Assembly: GCA_026129305.1 (NCBI GenBank)
Contig: JAHCII010000001.1
Location: 26,270 to 90,269 of the forward strand
DNA from: Anaerolineales bacterium
GTDB taxonomy: Bacteria > Chloroflexota > Anaerolineae > Anaerolineales > UBA11579
Length of the DNA stretch: 64,000 bases
Reading direction: 5' to 3'
Within the stretch, counting starts at the first letter, position 1; each line of letters opens with the position of its first letter. This document shows positions 528 to 31,783 of this stretch, in pieces. Under the pieces are notes generated by a model that did not search any database, was not told where the DNA came from, and worked only from the letters and a program-made list of their open reading frames with translations. The translations under genes were made by a program, and so were the position numbers.

Positions 528-559
528 AGAAAGGTGATAACTCCGATAGGAGTGTAGCC

Positions 560-608
560 TAAAGAGTTACAAAGTCAAGCCCGCGCCGTAGCGGCGCGAG
601 CTTGACTT
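560..608 (-). terminator. Hairpin terminator after the helicase gene
   Basis: 572-588 AAGTCAAGCCCGCGCCG pairs with 592-608 CGGCGCGAGCTTGACTT with one mismatch. A U-rich TTTGTAACTCTTT follows on the minus strand. Confidence 0.55.
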
Positions 609-618
609 GAATTCTCCA

Positions 619-1854
619 TTAGCGATAGGAAGCCAGACGCTTGGCGTAGTCTTCCCCACGCCGATTGCGCTGAGGGCGGCGCGCGCCGCGGGGGAATGCG
701 GGCTCCGGCCCGGTGGCAGCCAGCTGTGGTTCACTGCCGTAGTCAAAGCCTTCCAACTTGCGGCGCTCGATCGGCTTGCCCAGCACACGCTCCAGGCTGC
801 GCAAGGCCGCTTTGTCTTCTGGCGTCACCAGGGTGTAAGCGTCGCCGCTGCGTTCCGCCCGGCCGGTGCGGCCAATGCGGTGGATGTAAGCATCCGTGGT
901 ATCCGGCATATCGTAGTTGATCACATGCGAAATCGACTGAATATCCAGGCCGCGGGCGGCAATGTCGGTAGCCACCATGATCTGGAAGCGGCCTTCGCGG
1001 AAGCCCTTGATCGCCGCCTGGCGTTGACCCTGGGTGCGGTTGCCGTGCAGGCTGGTGACGCGATAGCCAGACGTCTCCAGCTGGCGGGCCACCTTCTGGG
1101 CGCGGTGCTTGGTACGCGTAAAGACCAGTACGGAGTTGGCGGCCGACTGCGTCAGCAGTTCCACCAACAAGCGCGTCTTGGCGCCGTTCGAAACCGGGTA
1201 CAGCGCATGCGAAACGGTATGGGCCGGAGCGCTGATGCCGACTGCCACTCGCTGCGGGTCGTGCAGGGCCTGTTCGGCCAGTTCACGCACTTCTTTGGGG
1301 AACGTGGCAGAAAAGAACAGCGTCTGGCGCTGGTCCGGGACCAGCTTGAGGATGCGGCGCACATCGGGCAGGAAGCCCATGTCAAACATGCGGTCGGCTT
1401 CGTCCAGCACCAGCACTTCGACCTTGTCGAGGCGCGCCGCGCCCTGCCCTGCCAGGTCGAGCAAACGACCGGGGCAGGCCACGATGATCTCGGTGCCGTT
1501 GCGCAGCGCCTGGGCCTGCGGGCGGGCGCCCACGCCGCCGTAGACGGTGACCGAACGCAGACCCGTGCCGGTGGCCAACAGCTTCACGGTTTCGTGGATC
1601 TGCTCGGCCAGTTCACGGGTCGGGGTGACGATCAGGGCGCGCGTTTGGCGGCGCGGGCCGTCCAGCAGTTTGTTGAGCAAAGGCAGCACGAAAGCTGCGG
1701 TCTTGCCTGTGCCGGTTTGGGCCGTGCCGATGATGTCTGCGCCTTGCAGGGCCAAGGGAATGGCCTGGGCTTGGATCGGCGTGGGTTGCACGAAACCGGC
1801 GCGTTGGATGCCCACTTGAAGGCGAGCATCAAGGTTGAACTCAGTGAATTGCAT
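619..1854 (-). CDS. DEAD-box ATP-dependent RNA helicase (RhlE/CshA-like) with a basic C-terminal tail
   Basis: Q-motif 'FVQPTPIQ', Walker A 'AQTGTGKT', 'DEAD', 'SAT' and 'HRIGRTGR' are all present. Confidence 0.95.
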   Translation of the reverse strand: MQFTEFNLDARLQVGIQRAGFVQPTPIQAQAIPLALQGADIIGTAQTGTGKTAAFVLPLLNKLLDGPRRQTRALIVTPTRELAEQIHETVKLLATGTGLRSVTVYGGVGARPQAQALRNGTEIIVACPGRLLDLAGQGAARLDKVEVLVLDEADRMFDMGFLPDVRRILKLVPDQRQTLFFSATFPKEVRELAEQALHDPQRVAVGISAPAHTVSHALYPVSNGAKTRLLVELLTQSAANSVLVFTRTKHRAQKVARQLETSGYRVTSLHGNRTQGQRQAAIKGFREGRFQIMVATDIAARGLDIQSISHVINYDMPDTTDAYIHRIGRTGRAERSGDAYTLVTPEDKAALRSLERVLGKPIERRKLEGFDYGSEPQLAATGPEPAFPRGARRPQRNRRGEDYAKRLASYR

Positions 1855-1974
1855 ATATTCCTTTGTTATTCAGAAGTCAAGCGGGTGTTTGGGAATGAAC
1901 AGAGAAATAAGACTAAGTTCAGACAAGAACAGCGGCGACTGCCGAATAAAGTTGCTAGTGGATAAGACCGGGCT

Positions 1975-2003
1975 AGCATACAGGGTCTGAACGGGAAAGT
2001 CAA
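1975..2003 (-). promoter_or_regulatory. Candidate sigma-70 promoter of the helicase gene
   Basis: Minus strand reads TTGACT (2003-1998), 17 nt spacer, TATGCT (1980-1975). This would give a ~120 nt 5' UTR. Confidence 0.4.
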
Positions 2004-2053
2004 GTCAGACCAGCCGACAGTTTGACAGTCTACAGTTGACAGAGAAACCATCT

Positions 2054-2100
2054 GTCATTGCGAGAGAGGCCCGGCGAAGCCAGGGCCGACGAAGCAATCT
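2054..2100. repeat. Short 'GTCATTGCGAG...CGAAGCAATCT' palindromic element, copy 1
   Basis: Sequence is gtcattgcgagagaggcccggcgaagccagggccgacgaagcaatct. The ends ATTGC/GCAAT are inverted. A related copy lies on the opposite strand at 18256-18304. Confidence 0.6.
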
Positions 2101-2110
2101 TAGTCTTTGG

Positions 2111-2192
2111 TTGTAGGGGCGGGTCTGTGACCCGCCCGATTGGGCGAGTAACAAGCGTACCAGCAGGGCCGGTCTGAGACCGGCCCCTACAA
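2111..2192. repeat. REP-like nested hairpin pair
   Basis: Two perfect 9-bp hairpins: GGGCGGGTC-TGT-GACCCGCCC (2117-2137) and GGGCCGGTC-TGA-GACCGGCCC (2166-2186). They are enclosed by the outer inverted repeat TTGTAGGGGC (2111-2120) / GCCCCTACAA (2183-2192). Confidence 0.7.
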
Positions 2193-2346
2193 ATCAAACT
2201 CTTGGTCGAATTCCTCTTCAGTAAGCACCTGATCCAGCTCGTATTCCCTGCACGCCGCGCATAATGCTTGTTGGAAGGCCGGGTCAGCTTGTTCGCGGCG
2301 GATTTCTTCTTCAATCAGAAGTTGAACCGTCGCTCATCAATTGATT

Positions 2347-3114
2347 CTACTCCAGCGCCCAGACGCGCAAATCCGAAAAACTCACCGAGACATCCCCCTC
2401 CCCCGAGGTGTGCACGAACACACCCAGGGTGCCCTGGTAGAGCTGAGTATCACTCACGCTAAAGAAATACATGTCATTCACAAAGAAATGCATTTGGCTG
2501 CCGCGCGCCCACACCCCCAGCCGTACGCTGCTGGGGGCCAGGCTGGGGATAATGCGGTTGCTGGCCCAGCCTGCATGGCGCGTCAGGCTCCCCCCCAGGT
2601 AGCGGTCCACCTTGGCGCTCCCGTCACAGCTCAGGGCGAAGCGGTAGTGGTCGCCATTCTGGACGCGCAGCAGCAGGCCGTATTCATCCCCACCCCGGCA
2701 CAGGCTGGGCTCAGCGGTGATCTCGGTATAGAAATTGCCCAGAACCGGCTGGGCGCGCGTGCTAAACAAGTAATTGCGGCCCAGGTTGAGCGTGAGGTGC
2801 ACGGTATTGTTGGAGACGATCACCACCGCATCCCGCTCGCCCCCGGTGGTCCACAGCGCTGCGTCGCTAAAATCGTCCTCCAGCAGCAAGTCGCCAATGC
2901 CCGGGCGCATGTCTGTCGTGGGTTGCAACTGCGGCGTGGGGAAACTGGTGGGCTGCGCGGTGGGCGGGAACCACACCGGGGTGGGCGTGGGGCTGGGCAA
3001 TGGCGTTGGCGCCTCGGTGGGCGACGGCGGTGCAAAAGTGACCCGGCAGCCGGTCAGCCACAGCAGCGTCAGCAAGCCCAGGGTCTTGAACAGGCGGTCA
3101 TTCACAAGGCGCAA
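2347..3114 (-). CDS. Lipoprotein of unknown function (Pro/Thr linker plus a beta-sandwich-like C-terminal domain)
   Basis: Signal peptide with lipobox 'LWLTGC', a proline-rich linker 'PPSPTEAPTPLPSPTPTP', and a C-terminal ~180 aa reminiscent of LamG/DUF1080-type domains. Confidence 0.6.
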   Translation of the reverse strand: MRLVNDRLFKTLGLLTLLWLTGCRVTFAPPSPTEAPTPLPSPTPTPVWFPPTAQPTSFPTPQLQPTTDMRPGIGDLLLEDDFSDAALWTTGGERDAVVIVSNNTVHLTLNLGRNYLFSTRAQPVLGNFYTEITAEPSLCRGGDEYGLLLRVQNGDHYRFALSCDGSAKVDRYLGGSLTRHAGWASNRIIPSLAPSSVRLGVWARGSQMHFFVNDMYFFSVSDTQLYQGTLGVFVHTSGEGDVSVSFSDLRVWALE

Positions 3115-3203
3115 TTATAGCGATGCCAGCCGGGCTGAATGGCCCAGACTCATGCTGCGCCCATCTGCTGAGCCGAGTAGAATAGCCGCCCAAGGAGAAC
3201 GCA

Positions 3204-3551
3204 ATGCGCATTCTGGCACGCTCTAAGATCCACAAAGCCATCGTCACCGACGCGGATGTGAACTACGTCGGCAGCATCACGATTGATGAGGACCTGATCG
3301 AAAAGGCCGGGCTGTGGCCGGGTGAAAAAGTGCTGGTGGTCAGCAACACCAGCGGAGCGCGTCTGGAAACCTATGTGATCGTGGGCCCGCGCGGCAGCGG
3401 AGAGATCACGATGAATGGCGCCGCCGCACATCTGATCAAGCCTGGCGAAGAGATCATCATTATCGCCTTCGAAATTACCGACACCCCTGTGGAAACGCAC
3501 TTTATCCTGGTGGATGAGAACAATAAGTTTGTGCAGTACTTGGGCAAATAG
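3204..3551 (+). CDS. panD: Aspartate 1-decarboxylase proenzyme
   Basis: 'MRILARSKIHKAIVTDADVNYVGSITID' carries the Gly-Ser self-processing site. 'NGAAAH' is present, the length is 115 aa, and GGAGAA lies upstream of the ATG. Confidence 0.95.
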   Translation: MRILARSKIHKAIVTDADVNYVGSITIDEDLIEKAGLWPGEKVLVVSNTSGARLETYVIVGPRGSGEITMNGAAAHLIKPGEEIIIIAFEITDTPVETHFILVDENNKFVQYLGK

Positions 3552-3721
3552 TGAATTGGCCAATCAATAATTGGCATTCTGGTCTCTCATTTCACAAAAT
3601 CGAACTTGGTTTGGGTTAGCAAGCAAGCCGCCCTGGCCATAGTCTGTGTCAGATTGAATAAGGGCGTAACATGCTACGCCCCCTTCGCGATCGAATTTGA
3701 ACTCCTTGTCGGCCTAATAAG

Positions 3722-4729
3722 CTACTCGTAACGCTCCCTGATATTCGGCACCAAGTATTCATCAAAACAACGCTGCAGGTCATACTCGGGCGCCCAGCCC
3801 CAGTCGGTGCGGGCGGCGCGGTCGTCCACATCCAGCGGCCAGCTGTCCACAATGCCCTGGCGGGCTGCATTGGGCGCATAGCTGATCTTGGCCCCGGGGA
3901 AGGCGGTCTGCACCTGGCCGGCAAAGGCTTCGGCTGACAGGCTGAAGGCGCCCACATTGTAGGCGCGGCGGCCAAGCGCCGCAGCCGGCGCAGCGGCCAG
4001 CCCCAGCAGGGCGCGCACGGCGTCCGGCATGGCCATGAAGGGGATGGTGGTGTCCGGCCGCACGAAACAGGCATAGGCCTGGCCCTGGGCGGCGGCATGC
4101 AGCATCTCCGGTCCGTAGTCGCTGGTGCCGCCCGTGGGCGCGGTGTGGGCGCTGATCAGCCCCGGGAAGCGCAGGGAGCGAAAGTCCAGCCGGGTGAGGA
4201 CCTCCGCCTGCAGCTGCCCGTACTGGTTGGAGTAATACGCCCCCAATTTTTCCACGGCCAGCTTATTGCAGCCGTACATCGTGGTGGGGTCATTAAAGTC
4301 GCCTTCGCCCACTTTGGCGTGCGTCGCTTTAGCCGCCAGGTCAGGCAATCCATACACGGCGATCGAGCTGGGAAAAATCACCTGCACCGGTTGGCCGCCC
4401 TCCATGGACTGGCGGGCAGCCAGCTCCAGCAGCAGCAGGCTGGCATCCACATTGACCTGGTGGGCCAGGGCCGGTTTGCGCTCTGCGCTGGTGGAAAGCA
4501 AGGCAGCCAGATGAAAGATCTGGGCAAACCGGTATTGCTCAGCCAAACCTGCCAATAGGGTTGCATCCGCCACGCTGCCCTGCACATGCTGGCTGGGCTG
4601 TGCCCCCGCTGGCATGGCTTGCAGGTCCAGGGTCACCAGCGGGCTTTTGCCCCCGGCGGCCAACTCGGCCAGTAACGCCTGGCCAATTTCTCCGGCGGCG
4701 CCAGTGATCAGAATGGCATTTTTCTGCAT
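3722..4729 (-). CDS. NAD-dependent epimerase/dehydratase-family extended SDR (L-threonine 3-dehydrogenase-like)
   Basis: 'ILITGAAGEIGQAL' is a Rossmann motif and 'YGCNKLAVE' is the YxxxK catalytic motif. Length is 335 aa. Confidence 0.7.
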   Translation of the reverse strand: MQKNAILITGAAGEIGQALLAELAAGGKSPLVTLDLQAMPAGAQPSQHVQGSVADATLLAGLAEQYRFAQIFHLAALLSTSAERKPALAHQVNVDASLLLLELAARQSMEGGQPVQVIFPSSIAVYGLPDLAAKATHAKVGEGDFNDPTTMYGCNKLAVEKLGAYYSNQYGQLQAEVLTRLDFRSLRFPGLISAHTAPTGGTSDYGPEMLHAAAQGQAYACFVRPDTTIPFMAMPDAVRALLGLAAAPAAALGRRAYNVGAFSLSAEAFAGQVQTAFPGAKISYAPNAARQGIVDSWPLDVDDRAARTDWGWAPEYDLQRCFDEYLVPNIRERYE

Positions 4730-4813
4730 CTTGCTCCTGAGAATAGGCTGTAGATGATGGGGAACGCGTATTATTGCACAGCTTTTGGGAAAACAATAGG
4801 CCGCGCAAACAAC

Positions 4814-4842
4814 TTGACGTAGAACGGGCGTTCGTGTATAGT
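4814..4842 (+). promoter_or_regulatory. lexA promoter with an embedded LexA (Cheo-type) operator
   Basis: TTGACG (4814-4819), 17 nt spacer, TATAGT (4837-4842). The spacer contains the palindrome GAACGGGCGTTC (4822-4833), which fits GAAC-N4-GTTC. Confidence 0.75.
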
Positions 4843-4881
4843 TTTAGCACAAATGAACGAATTTTTGCGAGGAGAGCCAAA

Positions 4882-5598
4882 ATGATGATGGCCAAACGCC
4901 GCAAGGGGCTGAGCGAACGACATAAGAAGATCCTGGAGGTGCTGGAGAAGTACCAGACCGAAACCGGTTACCCACCCTCCATCCGCGAGATTGGCAAACA
5001 AACCGGCATCTCCTCGACCTCCGTGGTTAATTACTATTTAAACCAGTTGGAAGAAGAGGGTTACATTGAGCGCGACCGCAAGATCTCGCGCGGCGTACGT
5101 CTGGTCAAGGGCCTCACCGGACAGTTGGAGGAAGCCGCCGAGAAGGTGCGCAGCGCCATCGAGGACCTGATCCGCGTGCCGGTGATCGGTCGCATCGTGG
5201 CCGGCGAACCCATGCCGGTGCCCACCTCTGATTTCGGCTACTACGACCCGGAAAGCGGCGTGGAAATCGCCCGCAGCCTGCTGGCCCCCGGCGACAAAGA
5301 AGAAGACCTGTTCGCTCTGGAAGTGCAGGGCGACTCGATGATCGACGCCATGGTCAATGATGGCGACATCGTAGTCATGAAACGCTCGCAAGACGCCCGC
5401 AACGGCGAAATGGTGGCCGTATGGCTCACCGACCGCGACGAGACCACCTTGAAGTACTTCTACAAGGAAAACGGCGGCATTCGGCTGCAACCCGCTAACC
5501 CCACCATGCAGCCCATCATTGTGGATAACCCGCGCGCCGTGCAGGTGCAAGGCAAAGTGGTGATGGTCATCCGCCAGATGGACGCATCGGCCAACTAA
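4882..5598 (+). CDS. lexA: LexA repressor
   Basis: The wHTH 'YPPSIREIGKQTGISSTSVVNYYLNQLEEEGYI', the Ala-Gly cleavage site 'VAGEP', and S24 peptidase 'VQGDSM...VVMKR' are all present. ATG at 4882 is preceded by GGAGAG. The longer ORF starting at 4774 was rejected. Confidence 0.95.
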   Translation: MMMAKRRKGLSERHKKILEVLEKYQTETGYPPSIREIGKQTGISSTSVVNYYLNQLEEEGYIERDRKISRGVRLVKGLTGQLEEAAEKVRSAIEDLIRVPVIGRIVAGEPMPVPTSDFGYYDPESGVEIARSLLAPGDKEEDLFALEVQGDSMIDAMVNDGDIVVMKRSQDARNGEMVAVWLTDRDETTLKYFYKENGGIRLQPANPTMQPIIVDNPRAVQVQGKVVMVIRQMDASAN

Positions 5599-5625
5599 CA
5601 GTCATAGCTCCTCCTCCGTGGAGCA

Positions 5626-5656
5626 GAAAAGCCTGCCAGGTGGCAGGCTTTTCTCT
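5626..5656 (+). terminator. Rho-independent terminator after lexA
   Basis: AAAAGCCTGCCAGGTGGCAGGCTTTTCT hairpin followed by a T-rich run. Confidence 0.8.
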
Positions 5657-5682
5657 TTCCGCTTGCCGTTACAATCAGCCGC

Positions 5683-6645
5683 ATGACAGAAGCCAACAGC
5701 CAACGCGTCCTGGTCGAGCTGATTAAAGAGATTGCCGCAGACCAAAGATACGGCCTGACCTGTTTTTCGCACGACTGGATCCTGCGCCTGGAGAAGAACG
5801 GGGCCACCCGCCATATCTTTGGCTACAACTTCGAGATCAACTCAGCCACCGCCGAATTACTGGCCGGGGACAAAGCCGCCATCGCCGACCTGTTGGCCCA
5901 TCAAGGGATAGCCAATGTTCCGCATCGCCTATTTTTGCACCCGCGGCTGAGCGGCTACGTTTCTGCCAAAGGCAACTGGCCTGCCATGTTGGCCTCCGCA
6001 GAGGAATTCGGCTATCCATTGGTATGCAAGCCCAACGCGGGCACGGGCGGCCTGGGGGTAACCCTGGTGAACAACGTGGCCGAACTGGAGCTGGCCGTGT
6101 ACACCTTGTTTCAGAAACACCGCGGCATCAGCTTTTCGCCTTATCTGGAGATCGACCAGGAGTTCCGCGCCATCATGCTGGACGGGGAACTGCAGCTGCT
6201 CTACACCAAGCGCCGCCCCCACGTGGTCGGTGACGGGCAGGCCAGCCTGATGCAGCTGATTCAGGCTGCGCAGGCTGGCGGGCAGCTGTCCGCCGAGGCC
6301 GCCGGGCAAGCCATCGAAAACAAACAGAACGATCTGCAAACGGTGCCTGCTGTGGGCGAAGAAGTGCTGCTGGGGTGGAAGCACAACCTGGGCGCCGGCT
6401 CCAGCCCGCAACAGCTGGGCGATGGCCCCTTAGCCAGCCAACTGAGCCGTCTAGCGCGCCAAGCGCAGCAAGCGATCAACATCCGCTTCGCTTCGGTGGA
6501 TATTGTCGAGGTGCAAGGCGAACACCGCGTGCTGGAGATCAACTCCGGTGTGATGATGGAGCATTTTGTGCGCAGCCAGCCGGAACACCGCGCCACGGCC
6601 AAGGCGATCTATGCCAGGGCGATCGAGCGCATGTTCGGCGCCTGA
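5683..6645 (+). CDS. ATP-grasp family ligase (first gene of the acyl-sugar operon)
   Basis: Motifs 'YPLVCKPNAGTGGLGV', 'EFRAIMLDGE' and 'LEINSGVMMEH' match the ATP-grasp core (RimK/cyanophycin-synthetase-like). There is no obvious SD. TACAAT lies at 5670-5675. Confidence 0.7.
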   Translation: MTEANSQRVLVELIKEIAADQRYGLTCFSHDWILRLEKNGATRHIFGYNFEINSATAELLAGDKAAIADLLAHQGIANVPHRLFLHPRLSGYVSAKGNWPAMLASAEEFGYPLVCKPNAGTGGLGVTLVNNVAELELAVYTLFQKHRGISFSPYLEIDQEFRAIMLDGELQLLYTKRRPHVVGDGQASLMQLIQAAQAGGQLSAEAAGQAIENKQNDLQTVPAVGEEVLLGWKHNLGAGSSPQQLGDGPLASQLSRLARQAQQAINIRFASVDIVEVQGEHRVLEINSGVMMEHFVRSQPEHRATAKAIYARAIERMFGA

Positions 6646-6670
6646 GCGGCATGTGCCTGCCTGATAGAAT

Positions 6671-7324
6671 TTGAATGTGGCGCCAACCAAGCTGCCTGCG
6701 GGCATCCCCCGCAGCAAACGTATCTTAGACATCAGCCTGACCCTGCTGGCGCTGCCCTTGGCATTGCCCCTGGCGGGGTTGGTGGCGCTGCTAGTGCGCC
6801 TCTTCCTGGGGCGGCCGGTGCTCTTTCGGCAGGAACGCCCTGGCTACCGCGGCCTGCCCTTTACCCTCTACAAATTCCGCACGATGAAAGACCTGCGCGG
6901 GCCGGACGGCGAACTGCGTCCGGATGCCGAACGGCTGACCGTGCTGGGCCGCCTGCTGCGCGCCTCCAGCCTGGATGAGTTGCCCGAGCTATACAATGTG
7001 CTGAGCGGAGAGATGAGCCTGGTGGGGCCGCGGCCGCTGCTGATGCGCTACCTGGACCGCTACACCGCCGAGCAGGCGCGCCGCATGCAGGCGCTGCCCG
7101 GGCTGACCGGCTGGGCGCAGGTCAACGGGCGCAACAACGTTTCCTGGGAGGACAAGTTCGCCCTGGACGTATGGTATGTGGACCACTGGTCGCTGTGGCT
7201 GGACCTCAAGATCTTGCTGCTGACCCCACTGAAGGTGCTGCGCCGCGAGGGTATCAACCAGCCCGGCAACGCCACTGCGGTGGAATTTATGGGCAGCCAG
7301 GGCCAGGAAGGGCGGCGAGTATAA
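6671..7324 (+). CDS. Small monotopic phosphoglycosyltransferase (bacterial sugar transferase, PglC/WbaP C-terminal type)
   Basis: 'KRILDISLTLLALPLALPL' fits a re-entrant helix. 'PVLFRQERPGYRGLPFTLYKFRTM', the 'DELPEL' Asp-Glu dyad and 'MSLVGPRP' are family motifs. The start is uncertain (TTG 6671 or GTG 6677). Confidence 0.85.
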   Translation: MNVAPTKLPAGIPRSKRILDISLTLLALPLALPLAGLVALLVRLFLGRPVLFRQERPGYRGLPFTLYKFRTMKDLRGPDGELRPDAERLTVLGRLLRASSLDELPELYNVLSGEMSLVGPRPLLMRYLDRYTAEQARRMQALPGLTGWAQVNGRNNVSWEDKFALDVWYVDHWSLWLDLKILLLTPLKVLRREGINQPGNATAVEFMGSQGQEGRRV

Positions 7325-8226
7325 TGCCGCCCATGCCAGACCAGGCCGGCCTGTACCGGCAGATGTACCGCATCCGCCGCTTCGAAGAAACCGTACTGGA
7401 TGCCTTCCCCAAGGGTCTTTTCTACGGCACCACACATACCTATATTGGGCAGGAGGCCAACGCGGCCGGCGTGCTGGCCCACCTCGGCGCGCAAGACATC
7501 GTCTTCAGCAACCACCGCTGCCACGGGCACTTCATTGCCTACGGTGGCGACCTGCGGGCCCTGTTCGCCGAACTGATGGGCAAGGCCACCGGCGTGTGCG
7601 GCGGCCTGGGCGGCTCACAGCACCTGCACTGGCGCAATTTCTATTCCAACGGGGTGCTGGGCAGCACAGCGCCCATCGCCGTGGGGACCGCCCTGGCCGA
7701 GAAGGCCAAAGGCAGCCCGGCCGTGGCGCTCCTCTTCCTGGGCGATGGAGCCTTGGGCGAAGGCACGGTCTACGAGAGCCTCAATATGGCCAGCCTGTGG
7801 GGCGCGCCGGTCCTGTTCGTGGTGGAAAACAACCACATCGCCCAAACCACACCCATCGAGCTGGCCCTGGCCGGCGACATCGCAGCCCGTTTCAACGCCT
7901 TCGGCATCCCATGCCAGCGGCTGGATAGCAGCGATGTACTGGAAATCCATACAGCCGCCGAAGCGGAGTTCGCCGCGCTGCGGGCCGCGCCCGGTCCGCG
8001 GGCGCTGGTGTTGGACACCCAGCGTTTTGGCCCGCACTCCAAGGGCGACGACACCCGCGACGAAGCGGCGATGGCCAGCATCCGCCAGCAGCGCGACCCG
8101 CTGGCGCTGCTGGCCCCCAAACTGGCCGAGGCCCAACGCGCCGCCCTGGAGGCCGAGGTACAGGCCGAGGTGGCCGCCGCCTTTGCTCAGGCCGAGGCCG
8201 ACCCCTTCCCGGTGGCGCTCCCATGA
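7324..8226 (+). CDS. TPP-dependent 2-oxoacid (pyruvate/acetoin-type) dehydrogenase E1 alpha subunit
   Basis: The TPP motif 'GDGALGEG...VVENNH' and 'RFGPHSKGDD' (equivalent to YRxxGHSxSD) are present. ATG 7324 overlaps the upstream stop as TAATG. Confidence 0.85.
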   Translation: MPPMPDQAGLYRQMYRIRRFEETVLDAFPKGLFYGTTHTYIGQEANAAGVLAHLGAQDIVFSNHRCHGHFIAYGGDLRALFAELMGKATGVCGGLGGSQHLHWRNFYSNGVLGSTAPIAVGTALAEKAKGSPAVALLFLGDGALGEGTVYESLNMASLWGAPVLFVVENNHIAQTTPIELALAGDIAARFNAFGIPCQRLDSSDVLEIHTAAEAEFAALRAAPGPRALVLDTQRFGPHSKGDDTRDEAAMASIRQQRDPLALLAPKLAEAQRAALEAEVQAEVAAAFAQAEADPFPVALP

Positions 8227-9242
8227 CCAGCGTACTGCAAGCCCTCAACCGCGGCCTGCACGCTGCCTTCCAGGACCCGCGCGTCCACCTGCTGGGCGAG
8301 GATGTGCTGGACCCCTACGGCGGCGCCTTCAAGGTCAGCCAGGGGCTTTCGACCGCCTACCCCGAACGCGTCTGGACCAGCCCAGTCTCTGAGGCCGGGC
8401 TGGCCGGCGTGGCGGCGGGCATGGCGCTGCGCGGCCTGCGCCCGGTGGTGGAGATCATGTTCGGTGACTTCAGCACGCTGATCGCCGATCAGATCATCAA
8501 CAGTATCAGCAAATTTGGCAGCATGTATGGCGGGGCAGTCCACGTGCCGCTGGTGGTGCGCACGCCGATGGGCGGCCGTCGCGGCTACGGCCCCACCCAC
8601 AGCCAAACGCTGGAAAAGCTCTTTTTGGGAGTGCCCGGCCTGCGCGTCCTGGCGGCCAATTCCCTCAGCGACCCCGGAGAGCTGCTGCGCCGGGCGATCT
8701 TCGAAGATGACGGCCCAGTCTTCTTTATAGAGAACAAGCTGTTGTATTTGCAGCCCCTTCTGACGACCGAAGACTTGCAAGATTTCGAGATCGAATTGCA
8801 CACTCCCCCCGCAGCGTATGCGGCCACGCACACGCTGCGACTCAGAGGCGCGTCGGCCCCCGCTCTGACCCTGACCGCCTATGGCTACATGGCGGAGCTG
8901 GCCCGCCAGGCGCAGCTGCGCCTGGCCTTTGAACACGAGATTTTCTGCGAACTGGTGGTGCCGGCCCAACTGGCCCCTCTGGCAGCCGGCGGCGAACTGG
9001 ACGCGGCCTTGGCCGCCTCGCTGAGCAAGAGCGGCCGGCTGCTGGCCATAGAAGAAGGCAGCTACACCCTGGGCTGGGGCGCCGAGGTGCTGGCCCGCGC
9101 CGCGCAGGCATTCCCGGGCGGCCTCAAGACGGCCGCCCGCCTGGCCGCCCCCGACGCGCCCATCCCCGCCTCACGCCCACTGGAAGAAGCCGCCCTGCCG
9201 GATGTTGAGGACATCCTGGCAACCGCGCAAAGAATGGTATAA
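8223..9242 (+). CDS. 2-oxoacid dehydrogenase E1 beta subunit (transketolase-like Pyr and C-terminal domains)
   Basis: 'LLGEDVLDPYGGAFKVSQGL', 'PVSEAGLAGVAAGMALRGLRPVVEIMFGDF' match E1 beta. Its start overlaps the E1 alpha stop as ATGA. Confidence 0.85.
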   Translation: MTSVLQALNRGLHAAFQDPRVHLLGEDVLDPYGGAFKVSQGLSTAYPERVWTSPVSEAGLAGVAAGMALRGLRPVVEIMFGDFSTLIADQIINSISKFGSMYGGAVHVPLVVRTPMGGRRGYGPTHSQTLEKLFLGVPGLRVLAANSLSDPGELLRRAIFEDDGPVFFIENKLLYLQPLLTTEDLQDFEIELHTPPAAYAATHTLRLRGASAPALTLTAYGYMAELARQAQLRLAFEHEIFCELVVPAQLAPLAAGGELDAALAASLSKSGRLLAIEEGSYTLGWGAEVLARAAQAFPGGLKTAARLAAPDAPIPASRPLEEAALPDVEDILATAQRMV

Positions 9243-9253
9243 CCGCGCCAGAT

Positions 9254-10348
9254 ATGAGCGCAGCCTTGGCGGTCACCATCCCGCTGATCAACCCCAACGA
9301 AAATGAAGCCCATCTGGCCGCATTGCACGTTAAACACGGCCAGGCGGTAAAGAGCGGTACGCTGCTGGCCACGCTGGAGACCACCAAGTCCACCTTCGAG
9401 CTGATCGCCGAGGCGGACGGCTTTGTGGCCGGCCTGCAGGCCCAACCCGGCGGCAAGCTGCGCGCCGGGGCCTTATTCTGCTACCTGGCGCCCACCCCGG
9501 ACTGGGAAGCCCCCAAGGCCGAAGAGAAGCGCAGCCAGCCCGGCGAAGTTCCGGAAGGGCTGCGCATCACCCAGCCCGCCTTGCTGTTGGCGCAGCAAGA
9601 AGGCTTGGACCTGAGCCAATTGCCGGTCGGGCCGATCATCACCGAGGCGCAAGTGCGCGCAGCCCTGGGCGGGGCCAAAGCCGCAGATAGTGAAATTCCG
9701 CCCGGCGTGGCCGCCAGCAACGCCGTATTGGTCTACGGCGGCGGCGGTCACGGCAAGGCGGTCATCGACTTGATGCGCGCCGCCGGAAGCTACACACCGG
9801 CCGGCGTACTGGACGACGGCCGCCAGCCCGGCGAGCAGGTGCTGGATGTGCCCGTGCTGGGCGGCCAGGGCTTGCTCAGCGCGCTGCGCGCCGCGGGCAG
9901 CCGGCTGGCCGCCAACGCCGTGGGCGGCATTGGCGCGATGAGCAGCCGCATACACGTATTCGAAATCCTGCGCGGGGCCGGCTTTGAATTCCCCAGCCTG
10001 GTGCACCCCAGTGCCGTGCTGGAACCCAGCGTCCAGCTCAATGACGGTGGGCAGGTCTTCCCGCATGCCTACATCGGCTCAGATGCGCAAATCGGCTTTG
10101 GCGGCATCATCAACACCGGCGCCGTCGTCTCGCACGATTGCGTGCTGGCGGACATGGTTAACCTGGCGCCTGGCGCCATCCTGGCAGGGGGGGTGCAGGT
10201 GGGCCAGGGCGCGCTGATCGGCATGGGCGTCACCGTCAACCTGGGGGTCAAGATTGGCGCCGGCGCCCGGGTGGGCAACAGCGCCACGGTCAAGGGCGAT
10301 GTGCCGCCCGGCGGTGTGGTGCGCGCCGGGGCTATCTGGCCGAACTAA
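9254..10348 (+). CDS. Chimeric E2-like protein: lipoyl domain, then peripheral-subunit-binding-like segment, then PglD/NeuD-family hexapeptide sugar acyltransferase
   Basis: aa 1-80 look like a lipoyl/biotinyl fold with 'LATLETTKSTFEL' (K45, nt 9386-9388). aa ~103-137 'LRITQPALLLAQQEGLDLSQLPVGPIITEAQVRAAL' resemble a PSBD. aa ~157-364 carry 'VLVYGGGGHGKAVIDL', 'GVLDD', hexapeptide repeats and 'VVSHDC' (His294, nt 10133-10135). There is no E2 'DHRxxDG' core. Confidence 0.75.
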   Translation: MSAALAVTIPLINPNENEAHLAALHVKHGQAVKSGTLLATLETTKSTFELIAEADGFVAGLQAQPGGKLRAGALFCYLAPTPDWEAPKAEEKRSQPGEVPEGLRITQPALLLAQQEGLDLSQLPVGPIITEAQVRAALGGAKAADSEIPPGVAASNAVLVYGGGGHGKAVIDLMRAAGSYTPAGVLDDGRQPGEQVLDVPVLGGQGLLSALRAAGSRLAANAVGGIGAMSSRIHVFEILRGAGFEFPSLVHPSAVLEPSVQLNDGGQVFPHAYIGSDAQIGFGGIINTGAVVSHDCVLADMVNLAPGAILAGGVQVGQGALIGMGVTVNLGVKIGAGARVGNSATVKGDVPPGGVVRAGAIWPN

Positions 10349-10374
10349 CCTAAGGTCGGCAAGCCGACCTTAGG
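10349..10374 (+). terminator. Perfect hairpin closing the operon
   Basis: CCTAAGGTCGGCAAGCCGACCTTAGG sits immediately after the TAA stop (10346-10348). Only a short TT follows, so factor independence is uncertain. Confidence 0.55.
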
Positions 10375-10403
10375 TTGGCTCTCAACTTGCCGCGCCGCGC
10401 GCT

Positions 10404-11312
10404 TTGGGTTACAGTGAAGCCGTGGCCGGGAAGAAGACAGACCGCAAAGGCACACGCAGTTCCGCGTTTGGCACCGCCGGGCGCGTCAACCACGATGCCA
10501 CCACTTTTTACAACAGCGCCCTATACAGCCAACAGAACCCGCCAACTCCCGATAGCCTCAACGAAAACCCCCTTCCCGCAACCGCACACAACCGTATTTT
10601 CGGCCACAGCAGCGAGCACATGCCGGAACTGCCTGACGGCAGCGTGCATCTGATGGTCACCTCGCCCCCCTACAACGCCGGCAAAGAATACGACCAGGAC
10701 CTAAATCTGGAAGATTACTTGGCCTTGCTGCGCCGAGTGTGGGCCGAGACCTGCCGCGTCCTGGCCCCCGGCGGGCGGGCCTGCATCAACCTGGCCAATT
10801 TAGGTCGCAAGCCTTACATTCCGCTGCATGCCTACATCATCCAGGATATGCTGGCCCTGGGGTACCTGATGCGCGGCGAGATCATCTGGGACAAAGGCTC
10901 CAGCGCCAGCGCTTCTACGGCTTGGGGGTCCTGGCTATCCGCCAGCAACCCCACCCTGCGCGATGTGCATGAATACATCCTGGTCTTTAGCAAGGGCGCC
11001 TTTGGCCGGGCCAAACCAGCCGGCGGTGAAGACACCATCGCCAAAGAAGACTTCCTGCAGAACAGCAAAAGCGTATGGAGCTTTCCGGCGGTGTCCGCCC
11101 GGCGCGTCGGCCACCCGGCCCCCTTCCCCGAAGAATTGCCGGCCCGCCTGATCCAGCTGTACAGCTTTACAGGCGACGTGGTGCTGGACCCGTTCATGGG
11201 CAGCGGCACCACAGCACTGGCAGCCCGCAAAGCGGGCCGTAACTATGTAGGCTACGAAACCAGCCGGGATTACATCCAGCTGGCCGAGGCTCGCATCGCT
11301 AAAGGCAGCTAA
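10404..11312 (+). CDS. Beta-class N4-cytosine/N6-adenine DNA methyltransferase (SPPY type), no adjacent endonuclease
   Basis: Motif IV 'VTSPPYNAG' is near the N-terminus and motif I 'DPFMGSGTTALAA' near the C-terminus, which is the beta-class order. The start is uncertain (TTG 10404 or GTG 10422). Confidence 0.8.
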   Translation: MGYSEAVAGKKTDRKGTRSSAFGTAGRVNHDATTFYNSALYSQQNPPTPDSLNENPLPATAHNRIFGHSSEHMPELPDGSVHLMVTSPPYNAGKEYDQDLNLEDYLALLRRVWAETCRVLAPGGRACINLANLGRKPYIPLHAYIIQDMLALGYLMRGEIIWDKGSSASASTAWGSWLSASNPTLRDVHEYILVFSKGAFGRAKPAGGEDTIAKEDFLQNSKSVWSFPAVSARRVGHPAPFPEELPARLIQLYSFTGDVVLDPFMGSGTTALAARKAGRNYVGYETSRDYIQLAEARIAKGS

Positions 11313-12940
11313 GTCCCAAACTGCAAACGTACGATCTTGTCGTCTGAGGTGGGCACATGGTGATAACTGACCCAGATGTCGCCGTTGCCACTGTCAATGG
11401 CCATATGCCGGATCAGGGCATACGGCGTGGGCAGCGGATATTCCACAAAAGTTTCGGTCAGCGGGTCAAAACTGGCCACGCGGTTGCCGGCCGCATAGCC
11501 GATCCAGACCAGGCCGCGCTGGTGGTCAATCTTAACCACATAGGGCTCAGCATTCTTGGTGGGCACTTCCCACTCCGTAAAGGTTTCCGTGCCCGGGTCA
11601 AACATCGCCAGGCGGCCGCCGGAAAACTCGGGGATCCACAGTTTGCCGTCAGCATCAATATCAAACCGCCGCGGACCACTGGTATCATGCGGGAACTCAT
11701 AGTAAGCCACTTCGCGAGTCTCAGGATGCAGCTTATAGATCCGGTTCCAATTCAAGTCTGAGACCCACACCATGTTGTCCGGACCTACCCGAATCTCGTA
11801 AGAGATCGGCAGTCCGGCCAGGTTGGAAACGTTGTTGTCTGGGATGTCAAAAACCAAGCGAGAACCATCCGGACTGACCCGGATGACCTTGCCCGGGTCG
11901 GAGAGGAAATGCCCATTAACCCAAGCATTGCCTTCGGAATCGAGCGCGACACTGTGCGCGTACATGTCAATAGAGTAGGTTTCGAATTCCGCGGTGAGCG
12001 GGTCAAAGAGAGCCAATTGGTGCGGGCTGCCAAAGACGATCCACCAGTTCCCCTCAGCATCCAGTTCCAACGCGCGGGGGTTGGCGTTGGGCTTTAAAGC
12101 ATAGCGGGTAAATTCGCCGCTCTCCGGGTCCAACAAATACATGTTGTGGCTGAACATGCCGGTAATGATGATCTGACCGTTTGAGTCGAGCACCAGGTCG
12201 TGAGGGCCAGCGCCTGGGAAGTCATACTCGGTCATGCGTACCTTGGCGGCCTGGGCGGTCACAGGCTGCGGCAGCGGCGGCTGGGTTTCCGCAGTCAGAT
12301 AGTGCGCCAGCCAGGCAGCCGTTTCCTCCACATCCAGAGGCCCGATGATCGGGAACCCGCTCTGCGGTCCGTAAAAGCTCAGCATCTTGCGGATGGACGC
12401 TTGCCACTGGGTTTCCGTGGGCCAGCCATTGTAGGCCTTACGCGGCCAGCCGAGCTGGTGACAACCCTGGCAGTCCAAAATGAACTGCCGGGTTTGGGCA
12501 TCGTCCGGCAGGACGCTTAGCCATTCGGCACCGCTGACCTGGTCGCGAATGTCCGCGGTGGGCGGCAGGCTCAGGTCGATCTCAAGCGCAGCGGCGGAGG
12601 TGATTGTGACATTGTGCGGCAGGGAATATTGATAACCAAACCCATGCGAGGAGATCACATAATCCCCAGCCGCCAGACCCGGCAGGGCATAGCGGCCATC
12701 TCCGTCCGAAAAGACCGTTACGGTCACACCTCGATCGTTGCGGGCCTGCACAAAGGCGAAGGGCACCGGGTTGCTGGTGCCGGCCTGCGTGACCCAGCCC
12801 TGGACTGCGCCCACAAAATCGGTCTGGGTGGTCACAGTAACTTCGAGCGGGGCAGCCGCGGTTGTTGGTGCGGCCGGCGCAGGACCACAGGCACAAAGAC
12901 CAAGTATCCATACCAAGCATGCACGCTTTACCATCAACAT
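11309..12940 (-). CDS. Secreted lipoprotein: CarboxypepD_reg-like domain, CXXCH heme motif, and Vgb/NHL-like beta-propeller
   Basis: Lipobox 'LGLCACG', 'SDGDGRYALPGLAAGDYVI', and 'CQGCH' are present. Repeated 'G..W(I/V)...' blades resemble streptogramin-lyase-like propellers. Confidence 0.6.
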   Translation of the reverse strand: MLMVKRACLVWILGLCACGPAPAAPTTAAAPLEVTVTTQTDFVGAVQGWVTQAGTSNPVPFAFVQARNDRGVTVTVFSDGDGRYALPGLAAGDYVISSHGFGYQYSLPHNVTITSAAALEIDLSLPPTADIRDQVSGAEWLSVLPDDAQTRQFILDCQGCHQLGWPRKAYNGWPTETQWQASIRKMLSFYGPQSGFPIIGPLDVEETAAWLAHYLTAETQPPLPQPVTAQAAKVRMTEYDFPGAGPHDLVLDSNGQIIITGMFSHNMYLLDPESGEFTRYALKPNANPRALELDAEGNWWIVFGSPHQLALFDPLTAEFETYSIDMYAHSVALDSEGNAWVNGHFLSDPGKVIRVSPDGSRLVFDIPDNNVSNLAGLPISYEIRVGPDNMVWVSDLNWNRIYKLHPETREVAYYEFPHDTSGPRRFDIDADGKLWIPEFSGGRLAMFDPGTETFTEWEVPTKNAEPYVVKIDHQRGLVWIGYAAGNRVASFDPLTETFVEYPLPTPYALIRHMAIDSGNGDIWVSYHHVPTSDDKIVRLQFGT

Positions 12941-26911: not shown

Positions 26912-27200
26912 TAGCCGCGTCCTCCTCGTCTTTCGGTAAATTAGTGGGGACAAAGCGCTTGGTAATCACGCGCGTGACCCACAGCATAGCCATTAGCGTA
27001 ACGGGCACACTTGCACACACCAAACCGAAAGTGTACATGTGGTTTTCCACTGCAAAGTAGTTGTCTAGCCATAATCCGGCGAACAGAGCTAGGAAAATGA
27101 TAGCAACTGTGAGGAGCCCGGCCAAGCCAGCCGCCGCCAACAAAGCCAGGGAAATCGGACTGCGGGCCTCACTCTGCCCGGGTTTGTTGGCTTGGCCCAT
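26904..27200 (-). CDS. AtpZ/AtpI-like small membrane protein preceding the F0 genes
   Basis: 98 aa with two TM helices, in the position upstream of atpB typical of AtpI/AtpZ. Confidence 0.6.
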   Translation of the reverse strand: MGQANKPGQSEARSPISLALLAAAGLAGLLTVAIIFLALFAGLWLDNYFAVENHMYTFGLVCASVPVTLMAMLWVTRVITKRFVPTNLPKDEEDAASG

Positions 27201-27209
27201 CGTTCGAGA

Positions 27210-27237: not shown

Positions 27238-27255
27238 TAAAACCGGTGAGGCGGG

Positions 27256-30186: not shown

Positions 30187-30202
30187 TTCACCTTATGTCC
30201 GA

Positions 30203-31777: not shown

Positions 31778-31783
31778 GGTCGC

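Follow-up and report, generated by a model that had tools for sequence, protein, structure and literature searches.

The locus studied here raises the question of what a TPP-dependent E1 alpha/E1 beta pair is doing next to a PglC-type phosphoglycosyl transferase (PGT) and a protein, LipPglD, that joins a lipoyl domain to a sugar N-acyltransferase. The window (the whole 64-kb stretch of Anaerolineales DNA that was analysed) carries five plus-strand genes in a row with two stable hairpins flanking them, as checked on its ORFs. Pfam and NCBIfam matches gave the order ATP-grasp ligase, PglC-type PGT, E1 alpha, E1 beta and LipPglD, and direct reading of the sequence found ORFs and junctions where a sequence-only reading had placed them:

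5625-5654, + strand: upstream hairpin (-27.1 kcal/mol, z -4.9), sequence AAAAGCCTGCCAGGTGGCAGGCTTTTCTCTTT
5683-6645, + strand: ATP-grasp carboxylate-amine ligase, 320 aa (weak RimK, CPSase_L_D2 and cyanophycin-synthetase matches)
6671-7324, + strand: small monotopic PGT, PglC type, 217 aa (Bac_transf, E 5e-59)
7324-8226, + strand: TPP-dependent 2-oxoacid dehydrogenase E1 alpha, 300 aa (E1_dh, E 6e-57)
8223-9242, + strand: E1 beta, 339 aa (Transket_pyr and Transketolase_C)
9254-10348, + strand: LipPglD (Biotin_lipoyl, PglD_N and Hexapep in one polypeptide by Pfam)
9254-9493, + strand: lipoyl domain of LipPglD, aa 1-80 (Biotin_lipoyl, E 1e-7)
9551-9673, + strand: PSBD-like two-helix linker of LipPglD, aa 100-140 (predicted helices 107-115 and 131-139)
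9722-10348, + strand: sugar N-acyltransferase part of LipPglD, PglD/PerB/VioB type (TIGR03570, 167 bits)
10345-10378, + strand: downstream hairpin (-27.6 kcal/mol, z -7.1), overlapping the LipPglD stop codon

The ATP-grasp and PGT genes are 25 nt apart (6646-6670), the PGT/E1 alpha junction is a TAATG (7322-7326), the E1 beta start overlaps the E1 alpha stop in an ATGA (8223-8226) and 11 nt (9243-9253) separate E1 beta from LipPglD. The E1 alpha ORF is open from 7171, and homologue lengths of 303-306 aa favour the start at 7324. The unit had also been described as bounded by terminators, which holds on one side: the upstream hairpin is followed by a U-rich tract, UUUUCUCUUU, and is probably both the lexA terminator and the upstream limit of the unit, whereas the downstream hairpin, which is the downstream limit, has no U tract in its sequence and so does not qualify as a canonical intrinsic terminator. 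A simple terminator scan flagged neither.

We then consider LipPglD itself, whose proposed nature as a chimeric lipoyl-acyltransferase was borne out, as its lipoyl, PSBD-like and PglD-type domains were seen by Pfam, NCBIfam and structure search. The best sequence matches of the lipoyl domain are lipoyl domains of E2 and protein X, and its model is a beta-barrel with 1.6-1.7 Å rmsd to PDH L2 lipoyl domains. Going by the fold, Foldseek could not tell lipoyl and biotinyl carriers apart; the lipoyl assignment is thus based on the sequence matches and the E1 context. The lipoyl lysine is K45 (codon 9386-9388). For the linker, the top PDB match of the family profile is the T. thermophilus E2 PSBD 2eq8_C, a weak one (E 0.021). 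Its residues L103, R104, P108, A109 and A113 are invariant in the alignment of LipPglD homologues, and the basic residues that bind E1/E3 in canonical PSBDs are Leu/Gln in the window lineage. Considering the weak match and these replacements, the "retained subunit-binding segment" of the earlier reading is better called PSBD-like.

The acyltransferase part consists of a PglD_N nucleotide-binding domain (aa 157-241) and a left-handed beta-helix (LbH, aa 242-364), and its TIGR03570 score is above the cut-off of 160.8 bits. It matches PerB (4ea7, E 5e-29), Neisseria PglB (4m98), VioB (7txp) and PglD (3bss), and Foldseek returned the same set. The catalytic His294 (codon 10133-10135) aligns with PerB His141, and the H141N/A mutant entries deviate at precisely that column. 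Neither K45 nor H294 varies among 81 close homologues. The family counts 388 library matches at E≤1e-30, and full-length fusions make up 121 of the best 150 representatives, down to 30% identity; in these 121 proteins, which share at most 50% identity with one another, K45 is always present (121/121) and the catalytic His is found in 120.

The E1 subunits resemble those of PDH-type complexes (E1 alpha2beta2). E1 alpha keeps the GDG...NN TPP motif and the "PHS" histidine, and of the solved structures human PDH E1 alpha is nearest to it (157 bits, vs about 75 bits for BCKDH), while E1 beta keeps the HSQ histidine and scores 142 bits against human PDH E1 beta. As both are nearest to PDH-type E1, pyruvate is the default guess for the substrate. 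Both fall under the NCBIfam PDH equivalog cut-offs (for E1 alpha, TIGR03182 gives 238 bits, cut-off 393.85), and they share 40-50% identity with cassette E1s from loci where LipPglD identity is down at about 30-36%. These two results suggest, at the level of sequence comparison, a dedicated E1 co-inherited with LipPglD.

LipPglD also has the layout of an E2, with a lysine-bearing lipoyl domain, a PSBD-like segment and a catalytic acyltransferase on one chain. Unlike in an E2, the catalytic domain is a PglD/PerB LbH and not a 2-oxoacid_dh core, and there is no DHRxxDG motif. Neither an E2 catalytic motif, nor E2 homology, nor an E3 redox-disulfide motif came up in searches of the 64-kb window, in agreement with the sequence-only reading. 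CAT-type E2 cores and E3 motifs were likewise absent from the window and 89 loci taken together (1.54 Mb in total), the Kordia E2 being recovered as positive control for the E2 search. The cassette could be a minimal, non-canonical 2-oxoacid or pyruvate dehydrogenase, in which the LbH replaces the CAT-like E2 core and the acceptor is CoA and not a sugar, giving an acyl-CoA that the cell would use locally or more generally. In favour of this, CoA binding is a property of LbH acyltransferases, E2 cores are built from trimers that the trimeric LbH resembles, and canonical E2 is absent nearby in the loci searched. Moreover, E2 catalytic domains are replaceable, as in acetoin dehydrogenase AcoABC, whose E2 AcoC bears a non-CAT catalytic domain, and NF011457 matches the lipoyl part of LipPglD. 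We nonetheless regard this explanation as distinctly unlikely: conservation extends to PglD_N, which binds nucleotide sugars, and to the His that serves as general base in amine acylation, no E3 accompanies the cassette in the loci searched, and the genes stand in amino-sugar, nonulosonic-acid and PGT clusters, at the N-acetyltransferase position, rather than in central metabolism.

The window shows little of this glycan context. As had been noted, further glycan genes are missing: tblastn found no DegT, GT4, UbiA or related genes in the 64 kb, and an aminotransferase or 4,6-dehydratase for an amino-sugar acceptor was found nowhere within 64 kb of the window lineage, this stretch being a small fraction of the genome and the Pfam scan of ORFs of 150-350 aa covering positions 1-13 kb. 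Outside the cassette, 20 ORFs of at least 350 aa were scanned, of which 19 encode housekeeping functions (complex I, ATP synthase, Mur ligase, PBP, ABC transport etc.); a 763-aa ORF (18431-20722) has no Pfam match. Taken alone, this neighbourhood, in which housekeeping genes lie on both sides of the cassette, would fit an ordinary PDH E1 that happens to lie beside glycan genes without forming a functional unit with them.

Related loci argue against such an accident. Of 80 Chloroflexota loci, about 75 carry the E1 alpha/beta and LipPglD core, with E1 beta directly upstream of LipPglD in 70 (match coverage of at least 50%) and partial matches in 3 more; the sole clear exception is L075, where LipPglD is accompanied by DegT and no E1 lies within 10 kb. 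The order PGT, E1 alpha, E1 beta, LipPglD is kept down to 42% identity. In all six distant loci (L084, L085, L088, L089, L090 and L091), E1, split or fused, lies immediately upstream, and overlaps of stop and start codons are frequent. One of the six is from Omnitrophota. An order kept over 80 genomes and other phyla, with overlapping or near-abutting frames and an E1 that scores under the PDH equivalog cut-offs, leaves chance neighbourhood with a very slim probability. Judged from synteny, E1 alpha/beta and LipPglD together make up the conserved functional unit, which in Chloroflexota is coupled to a PglC-type PGT. The five-gene cassette, previously taken as the unit to be looked for in relatives, is not the conserved unit, as the ATP-grasp ligase is linked in the window's close clade only.

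We also looked at which sugar-modifying genes travel with the core in relatives, and DegT aminotransferases and 4,6-dehydratases were indeed among them, together with PGTs and NeuB-type clusters. DegT directly follows LipPglD in 36 of the 80 Chloroflexota loci, and GT4 glycosyltransferases lie upstream in 11. LipPglD of relatives has the pathway position of PglD-family enzymes, acting after a DegT aminotransferase and lying beside a PglC-type PGT or NeuB. Relatives in Chloroflexota and L091 follow the gene logic of Campylobacter PglF-E-D-C (diNAcBac), with dehydratase, DegT, N-acyltransferase and then PglC-type PGT, while L084, L085 and L090 have the core amid nonulosonic-acid genes. In L085 and L090 the order, as in Leg/Pse pathways, is dehydratase, DegT, (NTP transferase), E1 alpha, E1 beta, LipPglD, NeuB, Epimerase_2 and CMP-transferase, so that LipPglD fills the LegH/PglD N-acetyltransferase slot of legionaminic-type clusters. 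The difference from the diNAcBac and Leg/Pse pathways is that the E1 and LipPglD module replaces the acetyltransferase step and that the window has no dehydratase or aminotransferase in its 64 kb. In L084 an extra stand-alone PglD lies beside the fusion, which implies that neither acyltransferase is redundant with the other.

Some deoxysugar pathways contain E1-like alpha/beta pairs, and in the pathways of branched-sugar antibiotics such pairs have been proposed to add a two-carbon branch. With 4,6-dehydratases making 4-keto sugars in related loci, the E1 pair might instead form a C-C bond, adding a two-carbon branch to a 4-keto sugar, and the lipoyl domain would be only an electron sink or vestigial. 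We find this very unlikely, considering that the lipoyl Lys is invariant, that the canonical E1 reductive-acylation histidines are retained, that DegT plus an N-acyltransferase domain is a simpler and complete pathway, and that the fusion partner is an N-acyltransferase and not a sugar-branching enzyme.

The data directly establish how the genes are ordered, which domains the proteins carry, which residues are conserved and that the core is syntenic with amino-sugar genes. From these we infer every chemical step, the acyl identity, the acceptor sugar and complex formation, and we think it reasonably probable that E1 loads a 2-oxoacid-derived acyl group on the lipoyl arm and that the PglD domain passes it to a nucleotide 4-amino sugar. 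The TPP-dependent E1 heterotetramer would decarboxylate the 2-oxoacid and reductively acylate K45. The acyl-dihydrolipoyl arm would then enter the active site of the trimeric LbH, where acetyl-CoA would otherwise insert its acetyl-pantetheine arm, and His294, as general base, would allow transfer of the acyl group to the 4-amino group of a nucleotide-linked 4-amino-4,6-dideoxy sugar held by PglD_N. The PGT would move the N-acylated sugar phosphate onto polyprenyl phosphate, starting a glycan. For re-oxidation of the dihydrolipoyl arm, the PSBD-like segment would presumably bring in a housekeeping E3; that E3 is co-located at none of the loci searched (1.54 Mb) is a point against the model. The predicted acceptor is a nucleotide amino sugar and not CoA, and the setting glycan biosynthesis and not central metabolism, unlike in 2-oxoacid dehydrogenase complexes, which the cassette also fails to resemble in having no co-located E3. 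Of the route first proposed, from E1 through the lipoyl arm and the amino sugar to PglC, the adjacency, the amino-sugar synteny and K45/H294 are in favour, and the acceptor-making genes are what the window does not supply. As E1 and the fusion sit, in related genomes, where the acetyl-CoA-dependent acetyltransferase sits in bacillosamine and legionaminic-acid pathways, the data suggest an undescribed, CoA-independent route of amino-sugar acylation; no literature on a lipoyl-arm sugar N-acylation cassette was found.

The LbH domain resembles an ordinary acetyl-CoA-dependent enzyme and, going by its sequence, may use acetyl-CoA. LipPglD shares with PglD, PerB, VioB, LegH and Neisseria PglB the TIGR03570 score above cut-off, full-length alignment, catalytic His and PglD_N, and differs from them by about 155 extra N-terminal residues (lipoyl and PSBD-like) and by having E1 alpha/beta as its obligatory neighbour; acetyl-CoA is the acyl donor of the known members, which stand alone or are fused to a PGT. 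The PglD domain could consequently be a conventional acetyl-CoA N-acetyltransferase, as are PerB, PglB, VioB and PglD, with the lipoyl-PSBD part merely tethering it to E1 (and to E2/E3 elsewhere), either for local acetyl-CoA from pyruvate or for regulation of activity, and the arm not a direct donor. This is unlikely in our view, because passing acetyl from lipoyl to CoA needs an E2 catalytic domain, found near none of the 89 loci, because the cross-phyla E1/LipPglD adjacency, translational coupling and invariant lipoyl Lys are hard to explain with an idle arm, and because L084 keeps its separate ordinary PglD.

The PGT matches C. concisus PglC (8g1n) over its full length (E 7e-55) and keeps the catalytic motifs, i.e., the DE dyad (SLDELP) and the PRP motif. 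The AF2 model of the ATP-grasp ligase (pLDDT 93.3) has as best Foldseek match the G domain of the cyanophycin synthetase CphA1 (TMq 0.71), followed by GshF, ArgX/LysX, Ddl and RimK. Among the 80 Chloroflexota loci, its gene is found upstream of the PGT only where LipPglD is at least 63% identical; homologues outside the window's clade are stand-alone genes in unrelated contexts, in other phyla outside glycan clusters. Here it is probably co-transcribed with the cassette. Precedents for such combinations come from Neisseria, where PglB joins a PGT to an acetyltransferase and PglB2 is a PGT fused to an ATP-grasp domain that makes a glyceramido-acetamido-trideoxyhexose (PMC11130364). The window's ATP-grasp ligase adjoins a PglC-type PGT, a likeness to PglB2 in gene placement, although the two are separate genes; by this analogy, our guess is that it might form, for example, an extra amide bond on the sugar.

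All five open reading frames claimed by the sequence-only reading were found at its positions, on the + strand throughout:

5683-6645, + strand: ATP-grasp ligase, with weak RimK, CPSase_L_D2 and cyanophycin-synthetase matches
6671-7324, + strand: PglC-type phosphoglycosyl transferase (PGT), Bac_transf, E 5e-59
7324-8226, + strand: E1 alpha, E1_dh, E 6e-57
8223-9242, + strand: E1 beta, Transket_pyr and Transketolase_C
9254-10348, + strand: LipPglD, the fusion of a lipoyl domain, a PSBD-like linker and a PglD/PerB-type sugar N-acyltransferase; Biotin_lipoyl at residues 8-76, PglD_N at 158-237, hexapeptide repeats, TIGR03570 at 167 bits

The tight junctions were also confirmed by reading the sequence (TAATG at 7322-7326, ATGA at 8223-8226 and an 11-nt gap, to which a 25-nt gap can be added). 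The E1 alpha frame is open from 7171 upstream, and its start at 7324 is supported because orthologues of 303-306 aa begin at the PGT stop. Both hairpins said to bound the operon greatly exceed shuffled controls in stability (upstream, -27.1 kcal/mol, z -4.9; downstream, -27.6 kcal/mol, z -7.1). The first has a U-rich tract behind it and resembles the lexA terminator, but the second has no U tract. Just 26 nt (5657-5682) lie between the upstream hairpin and the ATP-grasp ATG, and they include a TACAAT hexamer (5670-5675) 7 nt ahead of this ATG; being so close to it, the hexamer suggests a possibly leaderless mRNA for the operon. A -35-like element was looked for in vain, and in an Rfam scan the cassette showed neither a riboswitch nor a leader.

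A genome scan gave 80 loci, all Chloroflexota-type but one contig labelled 'Methanosarcinales'. On that contig (JAIWHF010000009.1, from a 'Methanosarcinales archaeon' bin) there is a Chloroflexota-like PGT-E1 alpha-E1 beta-LipPglD-DegT cassette at 52% identity, which probably reflects a binning error and not an archaeal occurrence. When the window proteins were compared with the Chloroflexota loci by tblastn, the order PGT-E1 alpha-E1 beta-LipPglD was kept down to 42% LipPglD identity. E1 beta is directly upstream of LipPglD in 70/80 loci and partial in 3 more (contig edges or gaps), and that the genes are mere chance neighbours seems to us extremely improbable. The sole clear exception is one locus (L075, 10001-11104) in which DegT and UbiA genes come after LipPglD and no E1 alpha or beta is present within 10 kb on either side of it. 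The sequence-only reading had also raised the question of which sugar-modifying genes travel with the cassette. In 36 of the 80 loci, clustering of neighbouring ORFs showed LipPglD to be followed immediately by a DegT/DnrJ/EryC1 aminotransferase, often with a UbiA-family gene next, and dehydratases are found in the distant loci L085, L089, L090 and L091. Moreover, a GT4 glycosyltransferase lies upstream of PGT in 11 loci, most of which have a GFO/MocA-type oxidoreductase and a heparinase II/III-like protein before GT4, and some a second GT4 farther upstream.

The fusion itself belongs to a large family. Searching 1.84 billion 50%-identity representatives exhaustively, we obtained 388 matches to LipPglD at E<=1e-30. 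Among the best 150 of these 388, full-length fusions account for 121, down to 30% identity, and they keep the lipoyl lysine (121/121) and the catalytic histidine (120/121). Biotin_lipoyl, PglD_N and Hexapep were retained in all nine family members sampled. In databases the label is uniformly 'NeuD/PglB/VioB family sugar acetyltransferase' and no more, which hides the lipoyl fusion from view in current annotation.

Within Chloroflexota, the view of a conserved five-gene cassette holds for PGT, E1 alpha/beta and LipPglD, which are syntenic, but not for the ATP-grasp gene, which is confined to the close clade (about a dozen loci with LipPglD at least 63% identical). We discarded it as a conserved member, as its homologues of 43-48% identity in Kordia and Acidobacteriota stand alone. 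In this window it is probably co-transcribed with the cassette. The protein has a confident ATP-grasp fold (AF2 pLDDT 93.3), and Foldseek matched it to the cyanophycin synthetase G domain (TMq 0.71) and also to GshF, LysX/ArgX, Ddl and RimK; its CPSase_L_D2 and RimK profile matches are barely above their cut-offs. Neisseria PglB2, a PGT-ATP-grasp fusion, makes a glyceramido sugar (PMC11130364). A comparable pathway role for the ligase is a conjecture guided by this one precedent, and it stays conjectural because of the stand-alone homologues. In Kordia zhangzhouensis (538-6954 of the locus), a 45%-identical homologue lies beside an AsnC regulator and adjoins a canonical branched-chain-type operon with fused E1, class IV aminotransferase and CAT-type E2, which may be a coincidence or a second, different association of ATP-grasp and 2-oxoacid dehydrogenase genes.

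Results for the E1 subunits point to the pyruvate dehydrogenase type. E1 alpha has its nearest solved relative in human PDH E1 alpha (157 bits vs about 75 bits for BCKDH) and keeps the TPP motif (GDGALGEG...ENN, for GDG...NN); its 'PHS' aligns with human 'GHS', so that the histidine ahead of the phosphorylation-loop serine in the human enzyme is conserved. In E1 beta, the HSQ histidine is retained and a Transketolase_C domain forms the C-terminal part. Both fall widely short of the NCBIfam PDH equivalog cut-offs (E1 alpha 238 vs 393.85, E1 beta 175 vs 321). That this E1 is a sugar C-branching enzyme we consider very improbable. The cassette E1s of the distant loci are 40-50% identical to the window E1, and thus better conserved than LipPglD. 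PGT aligns over its full length (residues 16-209) to Campylobacter concisus PglC (8g1n, E 7e-55), with the DE dyad (SLDELP) and the PRP motif of the re-entrant helix (GPRP) retained; by sequence, it is a PglC-type small monotopic PGT.

We also looked at the fusion part by part. An AF2 model built from 81 homologues (pLDDT 76.7) shows a lipoyl beta-barrel, two helices (107-115 and 131-139), a Rossmann-like PglD_N domain and a beta-helix. The first 80 residues find their best sequence matches in the lipoyl domains of E2 and protein X, and K45, the predicted lipoyl-lysine, sits within an ETTK turn and is invariant among homologues. Foldseek superimposed the N-terminal part on PDH L2 lipoyl domains at 1.6-1.7 A rmsd, and BCCP biotinyl domains fit equally well, so the fold search does not discriminate. 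A biotinyl carrier is nevertheless less favoured considering the lipoyl sequence matches, the absence of the biotinyl MKM motif from this domain, the neighbouring E1 and the PSBD-like segment. This segment had been read as retained for subunit binding. The two helices and the top PDB match of the linker profile (T. thermophilus E2 PSBD, 2eq8_C) agree with that reading, but the match is weak (E 0.021), Pfam E3_binding had no match in LipPglD at E<=0.01, and in the window lineage other residues (PALLLAQQ) stand where canonical PSBDs have basic ones; distant members often have K or R there. Because of the weak match and the replaced residues we call the linker PSBD-like, which is short of proven.

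The remainder of LipPglD is that of a sugar N-acyltransferase. TIGR03570 (NeuD/PglB/VioB) scores 167.3 bits against a curated cut-off of 160.8 over residues 158-356, and PglD_N is matched at E 1.6e-9. Over their whole length, the last 210 residues align with the perosamine N-acetyltransferase PerB (4ea7, E 5e-29), and also with the Neisseria PglB acetyltransferase domain (4m98), VioB and C. jejuni PglD; the same four proteins were returned by Foldseek for the C-terminal part of the AF2 model, a monomer whose confidence is low at the C-terminus of the left-handed beta-helix (LbH). H294 aligns with PerB His141, the column at which the mutant PerB entries H141N and H141A depart from the wild-type sequence, and this identifies H294 as the putative catalytic general base; across homologues PglD_N is retained and H294 is invariant but for one distant representative. 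The NeuD/PglB/VioB family thus has a genuine member in this C-terminal domain. It shares with that family the HMM score above cut-off, the general-base histidine and the nucleotide-binding domain, and differs by an N-terminal lipoyl-PSBD-like extension that is unprecedented. A conventional acetyl-CoA enzyme that merely carries a tethering module would agree with such a C-terminal domain; we find this unlikely.

We then considered the partners that a 2-oxoacid dehydrogenase complex would have. The module resembles such complexes in the logic of an E1-E2 pair, with a TPP-dependent E1 alpha/beta keeping its catalytic histidines and a lipoyl domain keeping its lysine, but differs from them by having neither an E2 catalytic core nor an E3 in the searched DNA. 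The CAT-like core PF00198 (2-oxoacid_dh) had no match in LipPglD, and neither the E2 core (DHRxxDG motif, tblastn) nor the E3 redox-disulfide motif CxNxGCxPSK was found in the window and 89 loci (1.54 Mb), in a search whose positive control, the canonical Kordia E2, was recovered. No E3 was seen among the large window ORFs either. The lack of a canonical E2 and of an E3 that had been noticed is thus borne out by motif and homology searches over the 64 kb. That LipPglD is a non-canonical E2 forming acyl-CoA appears to us quite unlikely. An NAD-linked E3 would fit the physiology of the host, as the genes for ATP synthase and complex I in the window indicate a respiratory lifestyle; subunit a of the former, with NuoH and the NuoN/M/L-type antiporter subunits of the latter, is encoded at 25883-36004 on the - strand. 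A strong positive AT skew of the + strand coincides with this gene run.

The absence of any further glycosyltransferase, flippase or polymerase likewise held for the 64 kb of the window when searched by tblastn and by a scan of its large ORFs, and neither an aminotransferase (DegT by tblastn) nor a dehydratase was found there. In this the window is unlike the diNAcBac-type pathway (PglF/E/D/C), in which both are encoded along with acetyltransferase and PGT; among the relatives, both enzymes do occur. A neighbouring SDR at 3722-4729 gained no support as the missing 4,6-dehydratase: it is Epimerase-like with a weak Polysacc_synt_2 match, and D-erythronate dehydrogenase, which it matches best in NCBIfam, scores far under the cut-off.

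In addition, six distant members were analyzed, and in all six an E1, with split or fused alpha and beta, lies directly upstream of LipPglD together with amino-sugar genes:

L085 and L090: legionaminic-acid-type; dehydratase, DegT, (NTP transferase), E1 alpha, E1 beta, LipPglD, NeuB, Epimerase_2, CMP-transferase
L084 (Omnitrophota): NeuB, two DegT, PseB-like dehydratase, CMP-transferase, second stand-alone PglD
L091: PglF-like dehydratase, DegT, glycosyltransferases
L088: Bac_transf PGT adjoining
L089: fused E1 and dehydratase

The conserved unit is thus E1 alpha/beta plus LipPglD, a portable module. Its place is that of the N-acetyltransferase, next after the C4 aminotransferase, in pathways of the bacillosamine type, where a PglC-type PGT goes with it, as well as in those of the legionaminic type. 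In the Omnitrophota locus (L084, 8001-11026), the lipoyl-fused PglD and a 640-aa fused E1 alpha-beta occur with an ordinary 205-aa PglD and two DegT, which suggests two different N-acylations in one nonulosonic-acid pathway. Genes for AP_endonuc_2 proteins (xylose-isomerase-like TIM barrel) were seen in L089 (4107-4985) directly after LipPglD, in L084 (2984-3871) three genes ahead of E1, and in L090 (19747-20523) next to a second NeuB at a distance of about 8.7 kb. This family includes hydroxypyruvate isomerase, and these neighbours are a possible hint at the 2-oxoacid fed to E1, to be taken as a lead and not as evidence.

The reading that we favour, and rank above all four alternatives, is that the lipoyl arm acylates the sugar amine; we consider it rather probable, with a chemistry that we infer throughout. 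In what seems to us the simplest mechanism, E1 would reductively acylate lipoyl-K45, the arm would swing as in E2, and the acyl-dihydrolipoyl group would replace acetyl-pantetheine inside the LbH active site, where H294 would serve as base in the acylation of the sugar amine. By default, the acyl source would be pyruvate, yielding acetyl. The acyl group may differ from acetyl, considering that L084 keeps an ordinary PglD and that a dedicated E1 for mere acetyl seems uneconomical.

We propose tentatively, as a serious possibility, that E1 alpha/beta and LipPglD form an unrecognised class of multienzyme, a '2-oxoacid:amino-sugar N-acyltransferase', which in several phyla would replace PglD or LegH of the bacillosamine and legionaminic-acid pathways, use protein-bound lipoate instead of CoA to carry the acyl group in glycan tailoring and perhaps install N-acyl groups other than acetyl. 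To our knowledge, the enzymology of N-acyl decorations on such sugars is largely unknown. If the proposal is true, the 2-oxoacid specificity of E1 may choose the N-acyl group: hydroxypyruvate, for instance, would give glycolyl, and 2-oxobutyrate propionyl. Non-acetyl groups would then explain part of the unexplained N-acyl diversity in bacterial nonulosonic acids, and the module would give a genetic handle on N-acyl diversification of bacillosamine-, legionaminic- and pseudaminic-type sugars. Finding the genes behind these substitutions has been termed 'a major challenge' (PMC5378307). If the lipoyl arm is the direct donor, lipoate would acquire a new role, delivering acyl to a sugar amine instead of CoA, and E2-like scaffolds a new way to be built. 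The module is a hybrid of two well-known systems, and there is a substantial chance that it puts lipoate to a new biochemical use. In the full-text literature, where subscription journals are thinly covered, we found no description of a LipPglD fusion or of E1 genes in these sugar pathways.

Finally, we looked at the neighbours of the cassette. The gene lexA (4774-5598 in the window) neighbours the PGT-E1-LipPglD cassette in 19 of the 80 Chloroflexota loci (L021, L029, L030, L033, L036, L054 and L083 among them), either upstream on the same strand or downstream on the opposite strand, an association that outlasts rearrangements. The single GAAC-N4-GTTC site of the window, GAACGGGCGTTC (4822-4833), lies within the lexA promoter region (4814-4842), between the promoter-like hexamers TTGACG and TATAGT, and its position suggests LexA autoregulation. 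As site and hexamers lie past the listed TTG at 4774, and relatives measure 238-244 aa, the true lexA start is suggested to be downstream. LexA control of the cassette was rejected for this window, because no GAAC-N4-GTTC precedes the cassette and the terminator-like hairpin parts lexA from the ATP-grasp gene. On the other side, an N6/N4 DNA methyltransferase (10404-11312, PF01555, E 3e-44), for which no restriction enzyme partner was noted, directly follows the cassette throughout the close clade. Next comes, in convergent orientation, a 543-aa NHL/Vgb-lyase-like beta-propeller with CarboxypepD_reg (11309-12940, - strand). Farther along the window, a 763-aa ORF (18431-20722, + strand) has no Pfam match at E<=1e-5, and a T-box leader (61822-62044, - strand; RF00230, 109.7 bits) lies upstream of a 358-aa ORF (60776-61852, - strand).
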